Source: Eledone cirrhosa
Lineage: Eukaryota
Length of the DNA stretch: 64,000 nucleotides
Reading direction: 5' to 3'
Assembly (NCBI GenBank): GCA_964016885.1
Contig: OZ024743.1
Location: 258,106,001-258,170,000 of the forward strand
Program-made: the position numbers and the translations under genes
Notes under the pieces: model-generated
Database searches by the model: none
The model's input: the letters and a program-made list of their open reading frames with translations, nothing else
What the model was told of the DNA's origin: nothing
Shown: positions 13,330 to 57,395 of the stretch, piece by piece
Layout: each line of letters starts with the position of its first letter
How positions within the stretch are numbered: the stretch's first letter is position 1

Positions 13330-13865
13330 ACACGTCAGTGTCCACCAGGGTTCTGTTCTTAGCCCTCTCCCCTTCATTATAGTTTTGCAGGCAATAACGG
13401 AGGAGTTTAAGACCGGATGTTCATAGGAACTCTTGTATGCGGATGATCTCGCATTTGTGGCTGGGTCCATGGTGGAACTAGAGGGGAGATTCCGGGCATG
13501 GAAGTGGGGTCTAGAAGAAGGGGGTCTCGGGGTCAACCTGGAAGGGAGTGGGGTTCTTGTGGGTGGACGAGGGAGCGGAGCCCGGAATCTTTCGGGGAGA
13601 TGGCCTTGCTTAGAATGTGGGGGAGGGGTGGGTGGGGACTCCATCCTCTGCCCCAAGTGCAAACGGTGTGTTCACGGCGCTGTGGTGGGATCTCGGGAGG
13701 TTTGACTAGGAGTGTGGGCTTCATGTGTGGCGGCTGTGCTGGGACAGCGGGCAGTGGGCGACCACGGGAGACGGGCGCCGCCGGGCTCTGTGGAGGCGGT
13801 GGATGGCTTCTGCTACCTAGGTGGCTGGGTTGGCAGCGGAGATGGGTGTTGGGAAAGTGCACTTT
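13330..13865 (+). pseudogene. RTE RT fragment with A-to-G hypermutation
   Basis: VHQGSVLSPL..YADDL..WPC..C..CPKCK..VH..YLG, colinear with the 35857-36798 ORF, with K/R/E/S/D>G, N>D and I>V replacements. Confidence 0.9.
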
Positions 13866-13962
13866 GTTGGTTATATATATATATATATATACCCTTCGTC
13901 TAAACCCATGCTAGCGTGGAAGATAGACGTTAAACGATGATGATGATGATATATATATATAC

Positions 13963-14049
<87 letters not shown>

Positions 14050-14052
<3 letters not shown>

Positions 14053-26264: not shown

Positions 26265-26831
26265 TGTGTATATATATATATCATCATCATCATCATTATT
26301 TTACGTCCGCTCTTCCCTGCTTGCAAGGGTTGGACGGGTCCTATTCAGCACAGCATCTCTCCACTTGTCACGGTCCTTTGTCATCTCCTCAGTGAGCTTC
26401 AGTGATCTATGGTCTGCTCTCACCACCTCCGCCCATGTTTTACGTGGTCAACCTATATATTATACATATATATATAAAGGATATAGATATATTAACCCAT
26501 ACTAGCATGGAAAAATGGATGTTAAACAGTGATGATGAGGATTACTCTGGTGTATATATATACTAGGATTTCTTTCTCCATGCTGACACATATGTGTAAA
26601 TGTATGTGCATATGCATACATTTATATGTATGAGTATATAGATATAAACTTGCAAACACAGACACACTTGCAAAATTACACTCACAGACATACATTTCAA
26701 GAAACACACACACACACACATTGAGTGATGGACAGATGGAAGTCACTCAAATTTATAAATAGATTGCAGAAGTGTAGATATATATATATTAGAGGGATGT
26801 AGATATATCCTATTAATAAAGGATTACTACA

Positions 26832-44700: not shown

Positions 44701-45553
44701 ATATGTTGTAATATTTTGTACCAAATCAAAGGTTTTTATTCAATCTAAGAATAATATAGAAAGAGTCAATAAGAGAAGAAATTAGCATGGGTTAACAATA
44801 CAACAAACAAGAACAGAACGAATACAACGAATAAGAATAGAAAGGAATCAAATCAAAGAGAAGAAAGTGATGCTATAAAACAAATCATATCATCACATTC
44901 TTTCCCTCTAGCGTTAATCGTTGTATCGCATTGATCTCACTACTAAGCGTCCTCGGTGTGTTCTTTGTTGTTGGGGTGTGTTATTCGAGGTTAAGAATGT
45001 GTCAGAAGATTCATCGTCGTCGAATTCAGCACTCTCTGTAGGATTGTTATCGGCGGTAGATGTCATACTTTCGTTCCCAACGGCCACAGGTGTAGATATT
45101 ACTGTTGGTTGAGTTAAATTGGCGCCTTTTGGGGAGTTATTATTCTGACACTCTGATGTTGTTGAATTTCCATTGTTTTGTGGTGATGCTGCTGGTGCGA
45201 GATTTGTAGTTGAGACTGTGTCTATTCTTCCATTATTAAATTGTACCTTGGCAAAGTAAGGTGAGATCATCTCGATGAGGTGAACGTTTTCTGTGAGATC
45301 ATCACTTTTATTCCTTATGTGACGTCGATGTAGTACGATTGTGTATTTAGAAACTCTGGTATTTCTGTGCCGTTGTTTGTCGATCTGGTGATTGAAAATA
45401 CTCTTTCATGTGGTGTCGCGTTTGTAGCAGTGCAAAGCAATCCTCGGATAGACGACAGAGTGATTGGAATCATGTTACTCCATTCATTTTTATTGAGATT
45501 ATTTGTCTTCAATGCCAGACTTACCTCTTTGCATATTGTGCCGTTAACTCTTT

Positions 45554-47141
45554 TCTCGAAAATAGATCTAAAGGCGGCTTATCACCAAATACCCATTAAA
45601 TCTTTCGACTTTAAGTTGACTGCATTTGAAGCCTGTGGCCGACTATACGAATTTACCCGTCTTCCGTTTGGATGCACAAATGCCGTTCCAATTTTCCAAC
45701 GAATAATGGACACTTTCATAGACAATTACAACTTACAAAATACCTACTCATACCTTGACGACATTATTATAGGAAGAGACACAGTCGAAGAACATAACCA
45801 TAACCTAAAGCAATTCATGAATGCAGCTAACAATGCAGGTATGCAATTGAATCGAGACAAATGCAGCTTTAATCAAAATAGAATATATTTCCTTGGACAT
45901 GTCATAGAAAAAGGTAAATTAAGACCGGACCCTGAAAGGTATAAAGCCCTTATTGACATGCCGTTCCCAAAGATGTTAAAAGAGTTGAACCGGGTAATTG
46001 GTCTTTTTGCATACTATGCTAAATGGATTAAGGGCTCTTCTAACCTCTCAGTCGTTCTTACAAAGGCAAGAACCACCATTGATAAACAAGGTCTATCAAA
46101 CGAAGAAAAATCTACTATTAATAAGATGAAGGAAGAACTCATAAAGGCATCACTGTGTTCACCCGATTTCACTGCACCATTTATAATCGAAACTGACGCA
46201 TCAGATATTGCCATTGGCGGAACTCTATCACAAAATGGTCGTCCAATTGCTTTTATTAGTAGAACCCTAAATAAGTCAGAAAGAGGACATTCTATCATCG
46301 AAAAGGAAGCTTGCGCAATTATAGAATGTTGTAGAAAATGGAGGCATATGATCAGCGCTTTTCCACATTGTAATATCATAACAGACCAATGATCGGTTGC
46401 ATTTGCGTTCAACAAAAAACACACTTCCAAGATTAGAAATGAGAAGGTAGCCCGCTGGCGACTGGAGTTAAGCGATCTTAACCTTACCTTCTCATATAGA
46501 CCTGGTTCATTAAACCAAGCCGCAGACGCCTTATCGTGCTGCTGCTCTACTAAGACGGAACACGAATTATACAATATTCACTCACGTCTATGTCATCCGG
46601 GGGTCACCAGACTTCTACATTATTGTAAATCAATGAACTTGGCATATCCTATTAATGAAATAAGAGAAGTTATCGCCAATTGTAAAATATGCCGTGAATT
46701 AAACCACAATTCTATAAACCACCCAAAGGAAAATTAATACATGCTACAAGAACCTGGGAAAGACTATCAATAGACTTTGTGGGTCCCATGGCTATCTCAA
46801 ACGGTTTTGGATTTATGTTAACTATAGTTGACGAGTACTCACGTTTTCCATTCGCCATTCCCTGTAAAGAGATAACAACGGTAATTAAACATCTATTGGA
46901 GATATTCTCTATATTTGGAAAACCCAGTTCGATTCATACAGATAGGGGACGTCAATTTGAATCACAAAAACTCAAAGATTTCTTATGGAGTAATAACATT
47001 ATTAAAAGCCACACCACGCCATATCGACATCAAGCCGACGGCCAATGCGAAAGAGTTAACGGCACAATATACAAAGCGATAAGTCTGGCATTGAAGACAA
47101 ATAATTTCAATGAAAATAAATGGAGTAACAGGATTCCAATC
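45554..47141 (+). pseudogene. Gypsy RT-RNase H-integrase segment, inverted relative to its element
   Basis: FSKIDLKAAYHQI, LPFG, YLDDII, ETDASD, IIEKEA, TDQ, HSRLCHPG, IDFVGP, VDEYSRF, HTDRGRQF, GQCERVNGT. Confidence 0.92.
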
Positions 47142-47648
47142 GCTCTGTTGAATTATTCCAGCTTTAAGCATTCTGTCGATTTCCGTTTTAATGAATTGCT
47201 GATCTTTATTGTATTTTCGAGGAGGTATAGATAATGGTTTTAATTTTGTAGTATCGATACCAGGCATTAAATCATATTCTTCACAATTCAGATTTTGCAT
47301 TGACATACATGTCGTGACTGCTCTCATGTCCCCTGCATATTTTATTGTTAAAGACTTATGCCTTTTAAGTATATCAAGACCCGTAACTACTGGAGCAATG
47401 AGTTTGTCAACCACCATTAGATCGATGTGGTATTCTCGGCCCTCCCATTCTAATGTTGTTTCAAACGTACCTCGTATTATGAGTTTACTGTTGTTGGCTA
47501 AAATTACACTCTTATTCTTAGTTTTCTTGAATTTACTTTGCCATTTTGACAAGAGGTTCATGTCAATCTTGTCTGAGCATGTGTCAAGTAAACCTTCTGT
47601 TTTATGTGAATTGACATAAATTGTTAAAAGGTTTGTATTATGATTCAC

Positions 47649-47830
47649 GAATTGGCAGTATCGGTAGAGGGTCGGATATGCTTTCCAGCATAGTTACGTC
47701 CCTTTACGATCTGAGTTCAAATCCCGCCGAGGTAAACTTTGCCTTTCATCCATACAGAGGTCGATAAAATAAAGTACCAGTAATGTACTGGGTAATTGCT
47801 GGCCTTGTGCCAAAAGTAGAAACAATTATG
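47649..47830 (+). mobile_element. Nin-domain-like SINE inserted in the gypsy gag-pro junction with 13-bp TSD
   Basis: TSD ATTATGATTCACG at 47637-47649 and 47825-47837. Confidence 0.85.
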
Positions 47831-49553: not shown

Positions 49554-49613
<60 letters not shown>

Positions 49614-50895
49614 CGAAGGAAATGTGGTAAGGGACCAGGTGGACCATAACGCACCAAAGTACTCAATACTTGAGGTAGTAGAGTGGGTAATAGGAACCAG
49701 TAAGACCCCGACAGCTGAGCTCAAGCCGTTTCGACGGATAATTCTGGACTAAATGAAAATTTATCCTGGTATTTAAATAGCCGATCTTCTCAAGGGGTAA
49801 TTCCATATATGGTCAAAGTGATTGTCAAAAATCAGTAGTAATTCTGTGGTTGCAAATTAGTAGGGGAGATGGTGGCTAAACCTGCCAGTAGGAGAAAGAG
49901 GGGAGGGGGTGGAGTAGACCCAATCAAGCGTTGGTAGTGCCAGCTACAGCTGGGCATGAGGTCAAAGAAGATACAGGGGAGGGGGAGGGAGAGGAAGTCG
50001 GAACGGTAGGTAGAACGATGGGGGGTAGAAATATATAGGAAAGAAAAAATACTGAGAGTGAAGAAAAGCAAATAAGTGTAAAGAAAAAAGTAAAGTAAAT
50101 TCTACGACCTAGGTCTCTAGCTATTGTTAGGCTAGAATAAATAAATAAAGAAAGAAAGAAAGAAGTAAAGAAAGAAATAAAGAAATAACGAAATAAGTAA
50201 AAGAACTAGGTGGGACGAAATAGGCAAGGACCCTTTTAAGAGGTATAAGTACGTAAATGATACAGTGACGGGTCAACAAAAGGGACCAAAATACTAAAGA
50301 GACTACCACGAAATAAACAATAAAGGTTTCCATCCCGGGCACAATGCCAGCAACCACCCAGTGCAGCAAAGTGAAATAGTACGAGATAATAATTCTGAGT
50401 CCCGAGAAAAATATATACTAATGCTAACTCTAAAAGATCTAAAACAAGCTACATGAAAGTTCGTACGAAGTAAAGGTAGAATACGGAAAAATAAATTCAG
50501 AATCCACCCCGCCCAAAAGAAAAGCGAAGAAAGAAATACTGAAACGAAAAAATAAGGCATAAGTGCCACTAAGAAATATAGAGGGCACAGAGAATAGTGG
50601 GAGCGGTCGGAAAAAGGGGACAAGTATCCGGGGTCTAAACCAACTGCTATAAAGGGCGGAGTCCGCCAAATCTATCATAGACTAGGGGAGGGGGTGGGGG
50701 TACTAAGGCTACAAGGGGCCAAAGGGCAGCCTCGGGTGGGCGAGAAAAGACGCCGACAAAGGAGAAGAGCTGGGGTAGAAGGACTTAGGAGAGAGGGGGG
50801 AAGGAAATAAAGGAAGCGATAAAAGAATACAAAGAAGATCTTACGTCTCCCTTGGCAAGCAGGGGTTACCCATTGCAAAATCGGCAAGTGGGGTG

Positions 50896-53064
50896 TTATA
50901 GCCCTAGTCTACCCCCCCCCCCCCCCGCCGGGTCATTATGGGGTTTGAGGGCGAGGTAAGTCCTACGCAATCTATGTTTACATGCAGTAACCAGTTCATC
51001 TTTCTTGTTTAGGAGTTGGTCCGTCGAAAACAGCATTTGTAAAGTTTCCTCCGAGCATAAATTGCACGGACGGCGTCCTCCCGTGTAAGAATTGGCTCTG
51101 GACAGTAATCTCCAAGTGAGATCATAGGTGATGTTGTTGTCCTTGAGGTCCCATATGTGGCCCGAAAGTGTAGTGGCGTGACGCCGGGCCGGGTTTCGGA
51201 AGGTATGTCTATGTTGGTATAGCCGGGTCTTGAAGTCACATGCGGTAAGTCCTATATAGGCTTTGTTGGAGGTATCCGTCCTCACGTTGCACTGGTAGAT
51301 CACATTACGGTCTCTGCATCTATTGTCGAGTGGGCAAATGGATCTATCCGGGCAGTTACACCTCCTGGTCGGTTCTCCACTGCTATTTAGGTTATTTCTG
51401 CCATCGGGGTTGAGTTTTTTGTTGTTAGAGGAGACGATGTTTTGTGCGAAGTTTGGTGTAGTGCTGTAAGAGAGTTTGATGGTGTTTTTGTTAATTATGT
51501 TGTGGTAGCGGTGTTGTAATGGGAAGTGTTTTTCAATGAGCCTAAAGAATAGTTTCCCGATGGGAGTTGTCACCTCTGCGTTGTGGGGAGGATTGAACCA
51601 TGTTACATTGCGTGAGCGGCGGTGTCTCCTGCTGGTTCCGCTAATGGGAGCTGGACAGTAGGATATTTCCTCCCGGAAACCACTCCGCTTGAGGGCCTGG
51701 TTGTAATAAGGCGCATGTTCATCGAATATCCGCTCATTAGCTGACAAACGGGATATGCGGAGGGAGATGTTTTTGACCAGGTTGTTTGTGATGTTCCTAG
51801 GATGGTTTGATCGGCGGTGGATGTAGTGCAGATTGTCATTAGGTTTCCTGTATGGGTAGTACAGGTCGTTTTCGAGGTCGAGGGTCACGTCCAGGAAGTT
51901 TACTCGGGTCAGGGACGTTTGTATGGTTATTTTAAATCCCCAGTCGCGGAAGAATCTGATTAATTGTTTCCGGACCCGATCTGTACTACTGGGGTTGTAC
52001 CCTTTAAGGGTAAGGAGCCCATCATCACGGTACAATCCATCACCGAATGCAGGAAACATATCAGTGAGTTTGGCTATTAGGAATAATCCTATAAGATCTG
52101 TGACCTCCGCCGAATCCGTGGCGCCCATGCTGACGTCGAAGGGTGAGTCGGGAGCTCTTTTTATCCATTTAGAGTCGTCAAAGAGTAAGACTGTCTTCCT
52201 GGCGTGGAGGATGATTTTTCTTTCCTGGTCGGTGATGGGCACAAGTGTTTCGGCGAAGTCCAAGGCGGCAGTAAGTAGCGGTAAGGTGATTGAAGCATAG
52301 TAGCTCTCTATGTCGAACTGTATGAATTTAGTTTCTCGTTTATCCTCCATATTGCTGAACCAGGAGATTACTTCCTGGGTGTTGATCCATAGGCTAAGTC
52401 GGGTGTGTTGATTGACTTTTGGTATCACGCGGTCTAGGATTTTTTTGCTGATTCTCCCTATGTCGGACTTCGTTGGGTTAAAATCGGATTTACGGTCAAA
52501 ATCGGATTTATGGTCCTTCAGTGTGAAGTATGGTGTCCGTGGGTCTAGAGGTTCCGTGCGGTCGGCGACCCCGAGGCTGGAGGTAATTTGTTGTCCATCT
52601 CGATTTATGTCCTCGATGCAAGAGTGGTTGGCCTTTTTATAGGTGGAGTTTAGGCTGCTCCTGATCAGTGTGTGGTATCTGTCAGGGTTGACAAAGTATA
52701 GGTTCCCAGTTTTATCCGAATGCACCATGATGTCATTTGTGTTATCATACTCTGTTAAGTTGCTACGGAGTTTTTGTAGGAATCGGTTGTGTCTGGGTTT
52801 AAATTTAATGTTCTTGACCAGTTGGAAGAGGTCATTCTCGAAGGGTGCGAGCAAGGGGTTCAGGGGCGGAGATTTGTAGGTAATAAATCCGAATCTCTCC
52901 TTGGTGCCGAAGTCTTGGTTGTCGCAATATCTGTCATAGAAAAAAGTTCTCCATCTAAGTCTTTTCGCAAATAGATCGATTTTTTGCGTGAGCATCCGAA
53001 GGTAAAGTTTTTTCGGTGGGATTGGGATGTTCTTGGTAGAGAAGTCAATGTTGTGTTTTCGCAT
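50896..53064 (-). CDS. PLE polyprotein: reverse transcriptase + C-terminal GIY-YIG endonuclease (722 aa from the first ATG)
   Basis: FSTKNIPIP, SDKTGN, TLKDHK, FDIESYYASI, MGA, GLYRDDGL, FLDVTLD, CNCPDRSIC linker, VIYQC..AYIGLT..FKTR, CNLC. Uninterrupted. Confidence 0.93.
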   Translation of the reverse strand: MRKHNIDFSTKNIPIPPKKLYLRMLTQKIDLFAKRLRWRTFFYDRYCDNQDFGTKERFGFITYKSPPLNPLLAPFENDLFQLVKNIKFKPRHNRFLQKLRSNLTEYDNTNDIMVHSDKTGNLYFVNPDRYHTLIRSSLNSTYKKANHSCIEDINRDGQQITSSLGVADRTEPLDPRTPYFTLKDHKSDFDRKSDFNPTKSDIGRISKKILDRVIPKVNQHTRLSLWINTQEVISWFSNMEDKRETKFIQFDIESYYASITLPLLTAALDFAETLVPITDQERKIILHARKTVLLFDDSKWIKRAPDSPFDVSMGATDSAEVTDLIGLFLIAKLTDMFPAFGDGLYRDDGLLTLKGYNPSSTDRVRKQLIRFFRDWGFKITIQTSLTRVNFLDVTLDLENDLYYPYRKPNDNLHYIHRRSNHPRNITNNLVKNISLRISRLSANERIFDEHAPYYNQALKRSGFREEISYCPAPISGTSRRHRRSRNVTWFNPPHNAEVTTPIGKLFFRLIEKHFPLQHRYHNIINKNTIKLSYSTTPNFAQNIVSSNNKKLNPDGRNNLNSSGEPTRRCNCPDRSICPLDNRCRDRNVIYQCNVRTDTSNKAYIGLTACDFKTRLYQHRHTFRNPARRHATTLSGHIWDLKDNNITYDLTWRLLSRANSYTGGRRPCNLCSEETLQMLFSTDQLLNKKDELVTACKHRLRRTYLALKPHNDPAGGGGGRLGL

Positions 53065-54682
53065 GGTGCGGGTGAAATGAATTGAGCTTAGCGGAAAAGT
53101 CTGGATACGGCGTGGTAGGGTCGGAAAGTGCTCTACTACGGGAGTAGGAGCTAGATAACGAAGGAAATGTGGTAAGGAACCAGGTGGACCATAACGCACC
53201 AAAGTACTCAATACTTGAGGTAGTAGAGTGGGTAATAGGAACCAGTAAGACCCCGACAGCTGAGCTCAAGCCGTTTCGACGGATAATTCTGGACTAAATG
53301 AAAATTTATCCTGGTATTTAAATAGCCGATCTTCTCAAGGGGTAATTCCATATATGGTCAAAGTGATTGTCAAAAATCAGTAGTAATTCTGTGGTTGCAA
53401 ATTAGTAGGGGAGATGGTGGCTAAACCTGCCAGTAGGAGAAAGAGGGGAGGGGGTGGAGTAGACCCAATCAAGCGTTGGTAGTGCCAGCTACAGCTGGGC
53501 ATGAGGTCTAAGAAGATACAGGGGAGGGGGAGGGGGAGGAAGTCGGAACGGTAGGTAGAACAATGGGGGGTAGAAATATATAGGAAACAAAAAATACTAA
53601 GAGTGAAGAAAAGCAAATAAGTGTAAAGAAAAAAGTAAAGTAAATTCTACGACCTAGGTCTCTAGCTATTGTTAGGCTAGAATAAATAAATAAAGAAAGA
53701 AAGAGAGAAGTAAAGAAAGAAATAAAGAAATAACGAAATAAGTAAAAGAACTAGGTGTGACGAAATAGGCAAGGACCCTTTTAAGAGGTATAAGTACGTA
53801 AATGATACAGTGACGGGTCAACAAAAGGGGCCAAAATACTAAAGAGACTACCACGAAATAAACAATAAAGGTTTCCATCCCGGGCACAATGCCAGCAACC
53901 ACCCAGTGTAGCAAAGTGAAATAGTACGAGATAATAATTCTGAGTCCCGAGAAAAATATATACTAATGCTAACTCTAAAAGATCTAAAACAAGCTACATG
54001 AAAGTTCGTACGAAGTAAAGGTAGAATACGGAAAAATAAATTCAGAATCCACCCCGCCCAAAAGAAAAGCGAAGAAAGAAATACTGAAACGAAAAAATAA
54101 GGCATAAGTGCCACTAAGAAATATAGAGGGCACAGAGAATAGTGGGAGCGGTCAGAAAAAGGGGACAAGTATCCGGGGTCTAAACCAACTGCTATAAAGG
54201 GCGGAGTCCGCCAAATCTATCATAGACTAGGGGAGGGGGTGGGGGTACTAAGGCTACAAGGGGCCAAAGGGCAGCCTCGGGTGGGCGAGAAAAGACGCCG
54301 ACAAAGGAGAAGAGCTGGCGTAGAAGGACTTAGGAGAGAGGGGGGAAGGAAATAAAGGAAGCGATAAAAGAATACAAAGAAGATCTTACGTCTCCCTTGG
54401 CAAGCAGGGGTTACCCATTGCAAAATCGGCAAGTGGGGTGTTATAGCCCTAGTCTACCCCCCCCCCCCCCCCCCCCCCCGGGTCATTATGGGGTTTGAGG
54501 GCGAGGTAAGTCCTACGCAATCTATGTTTACATGCAGTAACCAGTTCATCTTTCTTGTTTAGGAGTTGGTCCGTCGAAAACAGCATTTGTAAAGTTTCCT
54601 CCGAGCATAAATTGCACGGACGGCGTCCTCCCGTGTAAGAATTGGCTCTGGACAGTAATCTCCAAGTGAGATCATAGGTGAT

Positions 54683-56141
54683 CCAGGAAGTAATCTCCTG
54701 GTTCAGCAATATGGAGGATAAACGAGACACTAAATTCATACAGTTCGACATAGAGAGCTACTATGCTTCAATCACCTTACCGCTACTTACTGCCGCCTTG
54801 GACTTCGCCGAAACACTTGTGCCCATCACCGACCAGGAAAGAAAAATCATCCTCCACGCCAGGAAGACAGTCTTACTCTTTGACGACTCTAAATGGATAA
54901 AAAGAGCTCCCGACTCACCCTTCGACGTCAGCATGGGCGCCACGGATTCGGCGGAGGTCACAGATCTTATAGGATTATTCCTAATAGCCAAACTCACTGA
55001 TATGTTTCCTGCATTCGGTGATGGATTGTACCGTGATGATGGGCTCCTTACCCTTAAAGGGTACAACCCCAGTAGTACAGATCGGGTCCGGAAACAATTA
55101 ATCAGATTCTTCCGCGACTGGGGATTTAAAATAACCCTACAAACGTCCCTGACCCGAGTAAACTTCCTGGACGTGACCCTCGACCTCGAAAACGACCTGT
55201 ACTACCCATACAGGAAACCTAATGACAATCTGCACTACATCCACCGCCGATCAAACCATCCTAGAAACATCACAAACAACCTGGTCAAAAACATCTCCCT
55301 CCGCATATCCCGTTTGTCAGCTAATGAGCGGATATTCGATGAACATGCGCCTTATTACAACCAGGCCCTCAAGCGGAGTGGTTTCCGGGAGGAAATATCC
55401 TACTGTCCAGCTCCCATTAGCGGAACCAGCAGGAGACACCGCCGCTCACGCAATGTAACATGGTTCAATCCTCCCCACAACGCAGAGGTGACAACTCCCA
55501 TCGGGAAACTATTCTTTAGGCTCATTGAAAAACACTTCCCATTACAACACCGCTACCACAACATAATTAACAAAAACACCATCAAACTCTCTTACAGCAC
55601 TACACCAAACTTCGCACAAAACATCGTCTCCTCTAACAACAAAAAACTCAACCCCGATGGCAGAAATAACCTAAATAGCAGTGGAGAACTGACCAGGAGG
55701 TGTAACTGCCCGGATAGATCCATTTGCCCACTCGACAATAGATGCAGAGACCGTAATGTGATCTACCAGTGCAACGTGAGGACGGATACCTCCAACAAAG
55801 CCTATATAGGACTTACCGCATGTGACTTCAAGACCCGACTATACCAACATAGACATACCTTCCGAAACCCGGCCCGGCGTCACGCCACTACACTTTCGGG
55901 CCACATATGGGACCTCAAGGACAACAACATCACCTATGATCTCACTTGGAGATTACTGTCCAGAGCCAATTCTTACACGGGAGGACGCCGTCCGTGCAAT
56001 TTATGCTCGGAGGAAACTTTACAAATGCTGTTTTCGACGGACCAACTCCTAAACAAGAAAGATGAACTGGTTACTGCATGTAGACATAGATTGCGTAGGA
56101 CTTACCTCGCCCTCAAACCCCATAATGACCCGGGGGGGTAG
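54683..56141 (+). pseudogene. 5'-truncated inverted copy of the PLE ORF
   Basis: Only about 4 amino-acid differences seen versus the minus-strand ORF; starts at the inversion junction. Confidence 0.9.
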
Positions 56142-57253
56142 ACTAGGGCTATAACACCCCACTTGCCGATTTTGCAATGGGTAACCCCTGCTTGCCAAGG
56201 GAGACGTAATATCTTCTTTGTATTCTTTTATCGCTTCCTTTATTTCCTTCCCCCCTCTCTCCTAAGTCCTTCTACCCCAGCTCTTCTCCTTTGTCGGCGT
56301 CTTTTCTCGCCCACCCGAGGCTGCCCTTTGGCCCCTTGTAGCCTTAGTACCCCCACCCCCTCCCCTAGTCTATGATAGATTTGGCGGACTCCGCCCTTTA
56401 TAGCAGTTGGTTTAGACCCCGGATACTTGTCCCCTTTTTCCGACCGCTCCCACTATTCTCTGTGCCCTCTATATTTCTTAGTGGCACTTATGCCTTATTT
56501 TTTCGTTTCAGTATTTCTTTCTTCGCTTTTCTTTTGGGCGGGGTGGATTCTGAATTTATTTTTTCCGTATTCTACCTTTACTTCGTACGAACTTTCATGT
56601 AGCTTGTTTTAGATCTTTTAGAGTTAGCATTAGTATATATTTTTCTCGGGACTCAGAATTATTATCTCGTACTATTTCACTTTGCTGCACTGGGTGGTTG
56701 CTGGCATTGTGCCCGGGATGGAAACCTTTATTGTTTATTTCGTGGTAGTCTCTTTAGTATTTTGGCCCCTTTTGTTGACCCGTCACTGTATCATTTACGT
56801 ACTTATACCTCTTAAAAGGGTCCTTGCCTATTTCGTCCCACCTAGTTCTTTTACTTATTTCGTTATTTCTTTATTTCTTTCTTTACTTCTTTCTTTCTTT
56901 ATTTATTTATTTATTCTAGCCTAACAATAGCTAGAGACCTAGGTCGTAGAATTTACTTTACTTTTTTCTTTACACTTATTTGCTTTTCTTCACTCTCAGT
57001 ATTTTTTCTTTCCTATATATTTCTACCCCCCATTGTTCTACCTACCGTTCCGACTTCCTCTCCCTCCCCCTCCCCTGTATCTTCTTTGACCTCATGTCCA
57101 GCTGTAGCTGGCACTACCAACGCTTGATTGGGTCTACTCCACCCCCTCCCCTCTTTCTCCTACTGGCAGGTTTAGCCACCATCTCCCCTACTAATTTGCA
57201 ACCACAGAATTACTACTGATTTTTGACAATCACTTTGACCATATATGGAATTA

Positions 57254-57345
57254 CCCCTTGAGAAGATCGGCTATTTAAATACCAGGATAAATTTTCATTT
57301 AGTCCAGAATTATCCGTCGAAACGGCTTGAGCTCAGCTGTCGGGG
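57254..57345 (+). ncRNA. Type I hammerhead ribozyme with U3-A8 core (copies 49706-49797 and 53251-53342, minus)
   Basis: CCCC-TTGAGAA-GATCGG...CCGTC-GAAA-CGGCTTGAGCTCAGCTG-TC-GGGG. Confidence 0.8.
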
Positions 57346-57358
57346 TCTTACTGGTTCC

Positions 57359-57395
<37 letters not shown>

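Follow-up and report, generated by a model that had tools for sequence, protein, structure and literature searches.

An RTE retrotransposon fragment carrying a strand-specific A-to-G cluster of ADAR type in an octopod genome

Introduction

In the genome of the octopod Eledone cirrhosa, an internal fragment of an RTE-clade LINE carries a dense and sharply bounded cluster of A-to-G changes on its sense strand, placed in the neighbour context that ADAR enzymes favour and found at no other locus at the sites probed. We consider it very probable that this fragment derives from a sense RTE RNA that was hyper-edited by ADAR and reverse transcribed, with inosine read as guanosine (I -> G), and whose cDNA entered the germline. 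The fragment lies in a stretch of 64,000 nucleotides, G000:C4:258106001-258170000, analysed as a whole and referred to here as the window. A preliminary description of the window, made from its letters alone, had proposed that a hyper-edited LINE transcript was inherited here, and had named balanced substitutions, a natively G-rich subfamily, missing neighbour bias and absence from DNA reads as observations that would speak against it. Each was looked for, none was found, and the proposal is supported.

The edited fragment and its flanks

The coordinates of the fragment, its flanks and the related copies are collected in Table 1. By its domains and tail, the family to which the fragment belongs is tentatively assigned to the RTE clade, the features of the family and its sister copy including RVT_1 and PHD matches, an endonuclease-like N-terminal ORF recognized by eye and a (GAT)n tail. 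The fragment covers the C-terminal part of the reverse transcriptase (RT), with the YADD motif and a PHD-like insert, and lacks the ~800 bp of 3′ sequence with which the family runs on to its (GAT)n tail.

Table 1. Location of the edited fragment, its flanks and related copies (window positions unless a genome locus is given)
Feature	Location	Strand	Remarks
Internal RTE-clade LINE ORF fragment	13322..13862	+	Both ends cut
Unedited 5′ part of fragment	13322..13456	+	0/27 family As changed
Hyper-edited tract	13457..13859	+	75 sense A>G, ADAR-type neighbour preference
Left flank: short RTE-type 3′ tail, then (GAT)n and (TA)n	13182..13321	+	BLAST to family 3′ ends
Right flank: 11 non-family bases, (TA)n, second copy of left-flank tail, (GAT)n, (TA)n	13863..14052	+	
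Near full-length RTE, sister subfamily (~76% to family)	35637..38834	-	Comparator of the preliminary description, here an outgroup
Edited stretch of L068	G000:C19:33337458-33337958		Same family; 34/154 As changed
Cluster in L060	G000:C1:123347826-123347855 (L060:1486-1514)		8/13 As changed in ~30 bp

The homology to an RTE at 36 kb that had been described before is real, and that comparator proves to be a member of a sister subfamily, with ORFs at 36792-38834 and 35857-36822 and matches to RVT_1 and PHD. Its PHD finger is inserted near the C-terminal end of the RT (window 35860-36792, minus strand; Pfam PF00628, E=5.6e-6). The 27-base comparison from which the editing was first suspected is exact, with 7 A>G among 8 differences, as is the composition given for 13441-13860, where A accounts for 66 (15.7%) and G for 188 (44.8%) of the 420 bases. 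The A content of the comparator is high as claimed, although the figure of ~35% has to be lowered to a measured 32.5%.

The two flanks form a direct repeat when aligned with each other, and the tail variant of the left flank is unlike the one that copies of the fragment's own family commonly bear. The edited fragment is thus without a 3′ tail of its own and sits between two tail copies of another variant. An own 3′ tail is the usual leftover of target-primed insertion. The direct-repeat flanks are compatible alike with the duplication of a long target site, with a duplication that came later and with a cDNA patch. Both flanking tails are unedited, the right one with 0 A>G.

Substitution spectrum, boundary and neighbour context

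A search of the 3.0-Gb assembly with window positions 13325-13865 returned 2509 candidates, of which the best 40 were scored, and the column majority of the 29 closest non-self genomic copies among these (mean pairwise identity 94.5%) served as the reference. The fragment is 78% identical to the best family copies, a value that rises to 93.5% once A(copy)>G(window) is forgiven and only to 80.7% when G>A alone is forgiven. Against the majority, the window copy shows 105 differences, comprising 75 A>G, 12 C>T, 4 G>A, 1 T>C and 13 transversions; the imbalance between A>G and T>C (p=2e-21) is far from a balanced spectrum. Each of the 29 copies compared with the other 28 has 0-7 A>G, and the per-copy background taken from local alignments is 0-10 A>G per 450 columns. 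The reservation attached to the preliminary description, whose comparator was a related subfamily, is therefore removed, since the excess holds against the closest copies of the fragment's own subfamily. Sense-strand G>A clusters of APOBEC type were looked for in the window copy and not found, its 4 G>A being read with the polarity fixed by the outgroups.

The changes are sharply confined. None of the 27 family As in 13325-13453 is changed, as against 75/134 from 13457 on (Fisher p=7e-9), so that the boundary noticed in the preliminary description is real. Ranked by G content, the top seven 300-bp windows of the 64 kb come from the tract, and 57 of the 75 A>G lie in uninterrupted runs of at least five, the longest comprising 14.

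The neighbour bias expected of ADAR had first been sought in the surviving As, and the count of six following T among 66 is correct; as a test of context it fails, since edited neighbours confound counts on surviving As, and the test was redone on the family majority. Measured in this way, the edit rate falls with the 5′ neighbour from T (17/23, 74%) through A (33/49, 67%) and C (17/32, 53%) to G (8/30, 27%; chi2 p=0.001), and the depletion of G at -1 is marked (8/30 vs 67/104 for the other neighbours, p=3e-4). Ordinary copies, in which 2.1% of As are changed, show no neighbour bias; the family background by 5′ T/A/C/G is 2.4/1.7/2.2/2.4% over 61 alignments, not all of them independent. On the 3′ side, the rates are 32/45 for G, 26/49 for A, 7/16 for T and 10/24 for C, which amounts to a preference for G over the rest (43/89, p=0.016) that is not seen in the second edited copy, L068.

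Within the reading frame, the edits fall on codon positions 1, 2 and 3 in the numbers 31, 21 and 23, and 54/75 are non-synonymous, compared with 113/164 possible changes (p=0.5). Since this share is what is expected in the absence of selection, the edits carry no codon-position signature of selection. The edited copy also has two CC>TT doublets, at window 13420-13421 and 13590-13591, and its non-CpG C>T rate (7/61) lies above the family rate of 2.4%, an excess that tells against the proposed origin.

Other edited copies and their frequency

At one 26-base site, a whole-genome pattern scan found at least 3,867 family copies matching the unedited form within 2 mismatches, while the edited-form probe matched the window locus only; a second site gave the same result. 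The wider scan for edited copies that had been envisaged in the preliminary description took the form of six sense edited-form probes within one family, covering ~700 bp of its ORF, and it brought two more copies to light: of 10 matches, two are the window locus, two were kept (L068 and L060) and six were dropped. The simulated sensitivity of the probes is 0.43-0.79 for heavy editing and 0.05-0.14 for moderate editing. Heavy tracts thus occur in about one of several thousand copies, and a few further moderate tracts are likely to have escaped the probes.

The edited stretch of L068 has A>G at 34/154 ORF As, compared with 1-4 in its 11 closest copies, and its other changes include 1 T>C and 12 G>A. 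Edits again prefer 5′ T or A (26/75) over C or G (8/78; p=4e-4), a preference that persists in a hand count without the seven sites fixed by the probe (21/68 vs 8/78), and of the As that follow a 5′ G, 5/52 are changed. The copy, which extends to G000:C19:33338250 (L068:1160-1950) and whose best other match is 85%, is 5′-truncated and keeps its own 3′ UTR and tail, both unedited (1/97). A short degenerate target duplication was seen by eye, and alignment failed to recover one. L068 is the best case for target-primed insertion of an edited RNA. The cluster in L060 lies in an otherwise ordinary copy, with 9/229 As changed outside it; three of the eight As beyond those that the probe demanded are also changed (p ~0.003), and its context is not independent of the probe.

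Among the dropped matches, L061 is an old copy with balanced changes, L065, L066 and L067 have no family homology at the probe match, and L062 and L063 (G000:C3:25310087-25315730) belong to a 57-bp minisatellite. This minisatellite has more than 40 copies of a unit resembling a stretch of the RTE ORF and is possibly a LINE-derived tandem repeat.

All three A>G clusters are on the sense strand of the LINE, which is the retrotransposed strand. This bears on the possibility that the adenines were deaminated in DNA after insertion. The enzyme could have been ADAR, working on the DNA strand within an RNA:DNA hybrid, or else a DNA adenosine deaminase of unknown kind, and such deamination would likewise yield an ADAR context and a bounded tract and would not need the element's own 3′ tail. 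In model substrates, ADARs are indeed described as editing dA where a hybrid has an A-C mismatch (PMC12925331), and yet a conversion of 56% over 400 bp is far above the mismatch-dependent activity described there. Edited first-strand cDNA would moreover appear as sense T>C, of which the window copy has one, the flanking tails have escaped editing, and the shared sense orientation argues in the same direction, joined by a single antisense-type (T>C) probe that gave 0 matches in the whole genome, which weighs little as one probe against six sense probes. Deamination at the DNA level is for these reasons improbable.

An error of the RT, in which dC was wrongly placed opposite A in the course of a single insertion and for which a dNTP imbalance is one conceivable cause, would also be strand-specific, confined to a single copy and linked to retrotransposition. 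It would require A:C mispairs at more than half of the As, a sharp boundary and the 5′ order T>A>C>G, and it would have to have struck again in L068. A dNTP imbalance is expected to favour wobble pairs rather than A:C, and this explanation strikes us as highly improbable.

Family, outgroups and polarity

In the family itself, 73 of the 75 edited columns are at least 90% A. At the 75 sites, the sister copy has A at 58, G at 5 and another base at 12, and a second outgroup subfamily (L039) has A at 72. With A in the family and in both outgroups, the window copy represents the derived state. A second DNA search with the tract, in which the best 40 of 82 candidates were scored, gave a best match of 74%, and none of these shares the edits; its 19 non-self loci are ordinary copies, most of them from one duplicated block on C25. 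At G000:C25:19.5-23.6 Mb, where 17 of the loci L032-L050 lie, this block carrying a family copy is repeated more than 20 times in near-identical form, which suggests a large segmental or tandem amplification.

These data largely refute the notion that the window copy belongs to an unseen G-rich subfamily, or that it is ancestral and the family went G>A, to which we give very little credence. Room for it is left by the scoring of the best 40 candidates per DNA search and by the divergence of the window copy at non-A columns (7.3%), which exceeds that of the compared copies (1.8-5.0%), themselves picked for closeness. No natively G-rich multi-copy subfamily under purifying selection was found among the best 40 of 2509 candidates, the best other match being the 78% already given, and the pattern scans at two sites point to the window locus alone. 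The outgroup states speak against G>A in the family. A true subfamily split, represented by the 36-kb copy, also looks different, since it places 38/56 A>G at third codon positions, compared with 23/75 in the tract.

Presence in genomic DNA and age of the copy

Short-read contigs from two public runs reproduce the tract with 0 differences; one contig covers 13395-13742 and spans the edit boundary, and another covers 13595-13874 and reaches the right flank. Both runs come from one sample, possibly the assembled one, with an unrecorded library type and a depth of ~2; the ~1.4 billion letters of contigs per run look genomic. RAD runs X4 and X5, from two other samples, do not cover the tract and count neither way. 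An error of sequencing or assembly, or contamination by cDNA, for which one could cite the possible identity of the confirming and the assembled sample and the gap in the RAD runs, has a very low probability in view of the contigs' agreement across the boundary and into the right flank, the ordinary post-insertion decay of the copy and its location in a 379-Mb contig.

The window copy carries deletions of 1 and 11 bases, and these, together with its divergence at non-A columns, are as expected of long germline residence. CpGs created by the edits have decayed to TpG in 3/17 cases, compared with 1/24 unedited CpA, a difference that is not significant (p=0.29); the rate is near the CpG decay of the family (18%).

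Host ADAR genes and the double-stranded substrate

Matches to PF02137 were found at four genome loci. One is predicted to encode an ADAR2 deaminase domain that matches human ADAR2 at E=2.5e-101, keeps its catalytic motifs intact and bears the KIESGEGT loop present in human ADAR2; its identity to the ADAR2 of Octopus vulgaris is 95%. Another exon is closest to ADAR1 and thus ADAR1-like. A downstream G preference has been tied to Ser486 of ADAR2 (PMC5625713), and the 3′ G preference of the tract would fit such a Ser-bearing loop rather than the A preference reported for invertebrates in the same source.

A self-hairpin was considered as the editing substrate and found no support, as no strong fold of the family sequence was found over the tract (lowest z -1.7). 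A close inverted partner was sought in the window and the preceding 10 kb, where only the 76% sister copy turned up, 22 kb away. Given the weak self-fold and the lack of a close inverted partner over this range, the duplex probably arose at another place, either by pairing with an antisense RNA or at the locus from which the RNA came.

The window holds other repeats as well. A Penelope-like element at 49607-57361 comprises three overlapping copies and a 789-aa open frame in which, by eye, an RT is followed by a GIY-YIG-like part; its 2.7-kb inverted arms are 99% identical and show no A>G bias between them. Self-BLAST shows a tandem array at 26814-28208, ~1.4 kb long and built of units of about 76 bp, and 45334-47693 contains broken pol frames of LTR-retrotransposon type that by eye resemble RT, RNase H and integrase.

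Proposed origin and its significance

On our reading, a sense RTE transcript would have been held in long dsRNA over ~400 nt, most likely with an antisense transcript or an inverted copy at the source locus as its partner, and ADAR would have converted ~56% of the As to inosine. The unedited 130 bp at the 5′ end may have lain outside the duplex or may stem from a template switch. An RT would then have copied the edited RNA, reading I as G, and the cDNA would have entered a germline chromosome at a (TA)n-rich site, to be inherited and to decay neutrally. Entry may have been by target-primed reverse transcription, probably in trans; with 54 codon positions recoded by the edits, the RT is likely to have come from another element's RNA in trans or to have been translated before the editing took place. 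As the window copy is without the kind of tail that L068 keeps, a cDNA patch or a later deletion also has to be considered.

Extending this to the genome as a whole, we lean towards the view that ADAR edits retrotransposon RNA in octopod germ cells or early embryos and that a small share of it is recurrently written into the genome, leaving ADAR-scarred retrocopies. If so, these would be an RNA-level, invertebrate counterpart of APOBEC-edited retro-elements, would preserve a history of the specificity of germline ADAR and may be what is still visible of an editing-dependent restriction of LINEs. The preliminary description had also raised ADAR editing as a possible route of transposon inactivation. 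The data point only weakly to this, marked copies being about one in a thousand or fewer, and a major inactivation route lies beyond the present evidence. A need for RT in trans may itself explain the rarity, which would then be no measure of restriction by editing.

Edited copies that are inherited would demonstrate that LINE RNA, once edited, is able to finish reverse transcription and germline integration. RNA editing would thus have a way into heritable DNA change, and this in the lineage for which editing is best known; the low frequency here limits its weight as a source of mutation. The rate of germline editing, its age, the range of families and the enzyme context thereby become testable from assemblies alone, through a screen for A>G in LINEs.

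Comparison with known systems

Hyper-editing in octopus is described as exceptionally high, among the highest of the animals studied (PMC5625713), octopus has an RTE LINE with signs of being active (PMC9115989), and editing outside the nervous system of squid targets repeats, editing as a transposon defence being regarded as possibly major and unexplored in the same cephalopod genome paper (PMC9068888). A 2016 review treats the suppression of retrotransposition through mutation by ADAR editing as a role undetermined (PMC4982230); in human cells, L1 was restricted by ADAR1 with no editing of L1 detected (PMC5224506), and one endogenous mouse provirus has been described with an A>G excess and without the ADAR context (PMC12548423). 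No report of inherited ADAR-edited LINE copies was found in a literature search that covered titles and the beginnings of abstracts and included few subscription papers; mismatch types other than G-to-A are tabulated in the supplements of PMC4866542, which could affect how new the finding is.

By its features, the family resembles RTE-2_OV of octopus and its relatives, which share an RTE-like ORF with endonuclease and RT, a (GAT)n tail and thousands of copies, and which are described in PMC9115989 with, in the parts consulted, no treatment of edited genomic copies. Like the clusters of ADAR hyper-edited RNA, which have upstream G depleted and downstream G enriched (Porath 2014, PMC4365171), the tract is a dense, bounded, single-strand A>G cluster in a repeat with 5′ G depleted. 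Upstream G depletion is reported for all animals studied, and downstream A for invertebrates (Porath 2017, PMC5625713), whereas the tract prefers downstream G; and while the clusters of both studies are RNA-versus-genome mismatches, the changes here are in the chromosome itself.

A-to-G hyper-edited sequences are also described for retroviruses, including Rous-associated virus, avian leukosis virus, HTLV-2 and STLV-3 (PMC12925331). The tract shares with them an ADAR-type conversion that affects about half of the As of an element replicating by reverse transcription, and differs in that those are LTR viruses in infection, whereas the present element is endogenous and of non-LTR type and has been inherited and has aged in the germline. 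Endogenous retro-elements with DNA editing by APOBEC are known as well (Knisbacher and Levanon, PMC4866542; Zaranek, PMC2873906); the screen of PMC4866542 required G-to-A rather than A-to-G in LTR elements, and is reported as finding invertebrates devoid of DNA editing. The copies described here resemble APOBEC-edited elements in being inherited, strand-biased and hypermutated records of a host deaminase, and are their opposite in the change itself, which in those vertebrate LTR elements is a sense G>A arising on the cDNA.
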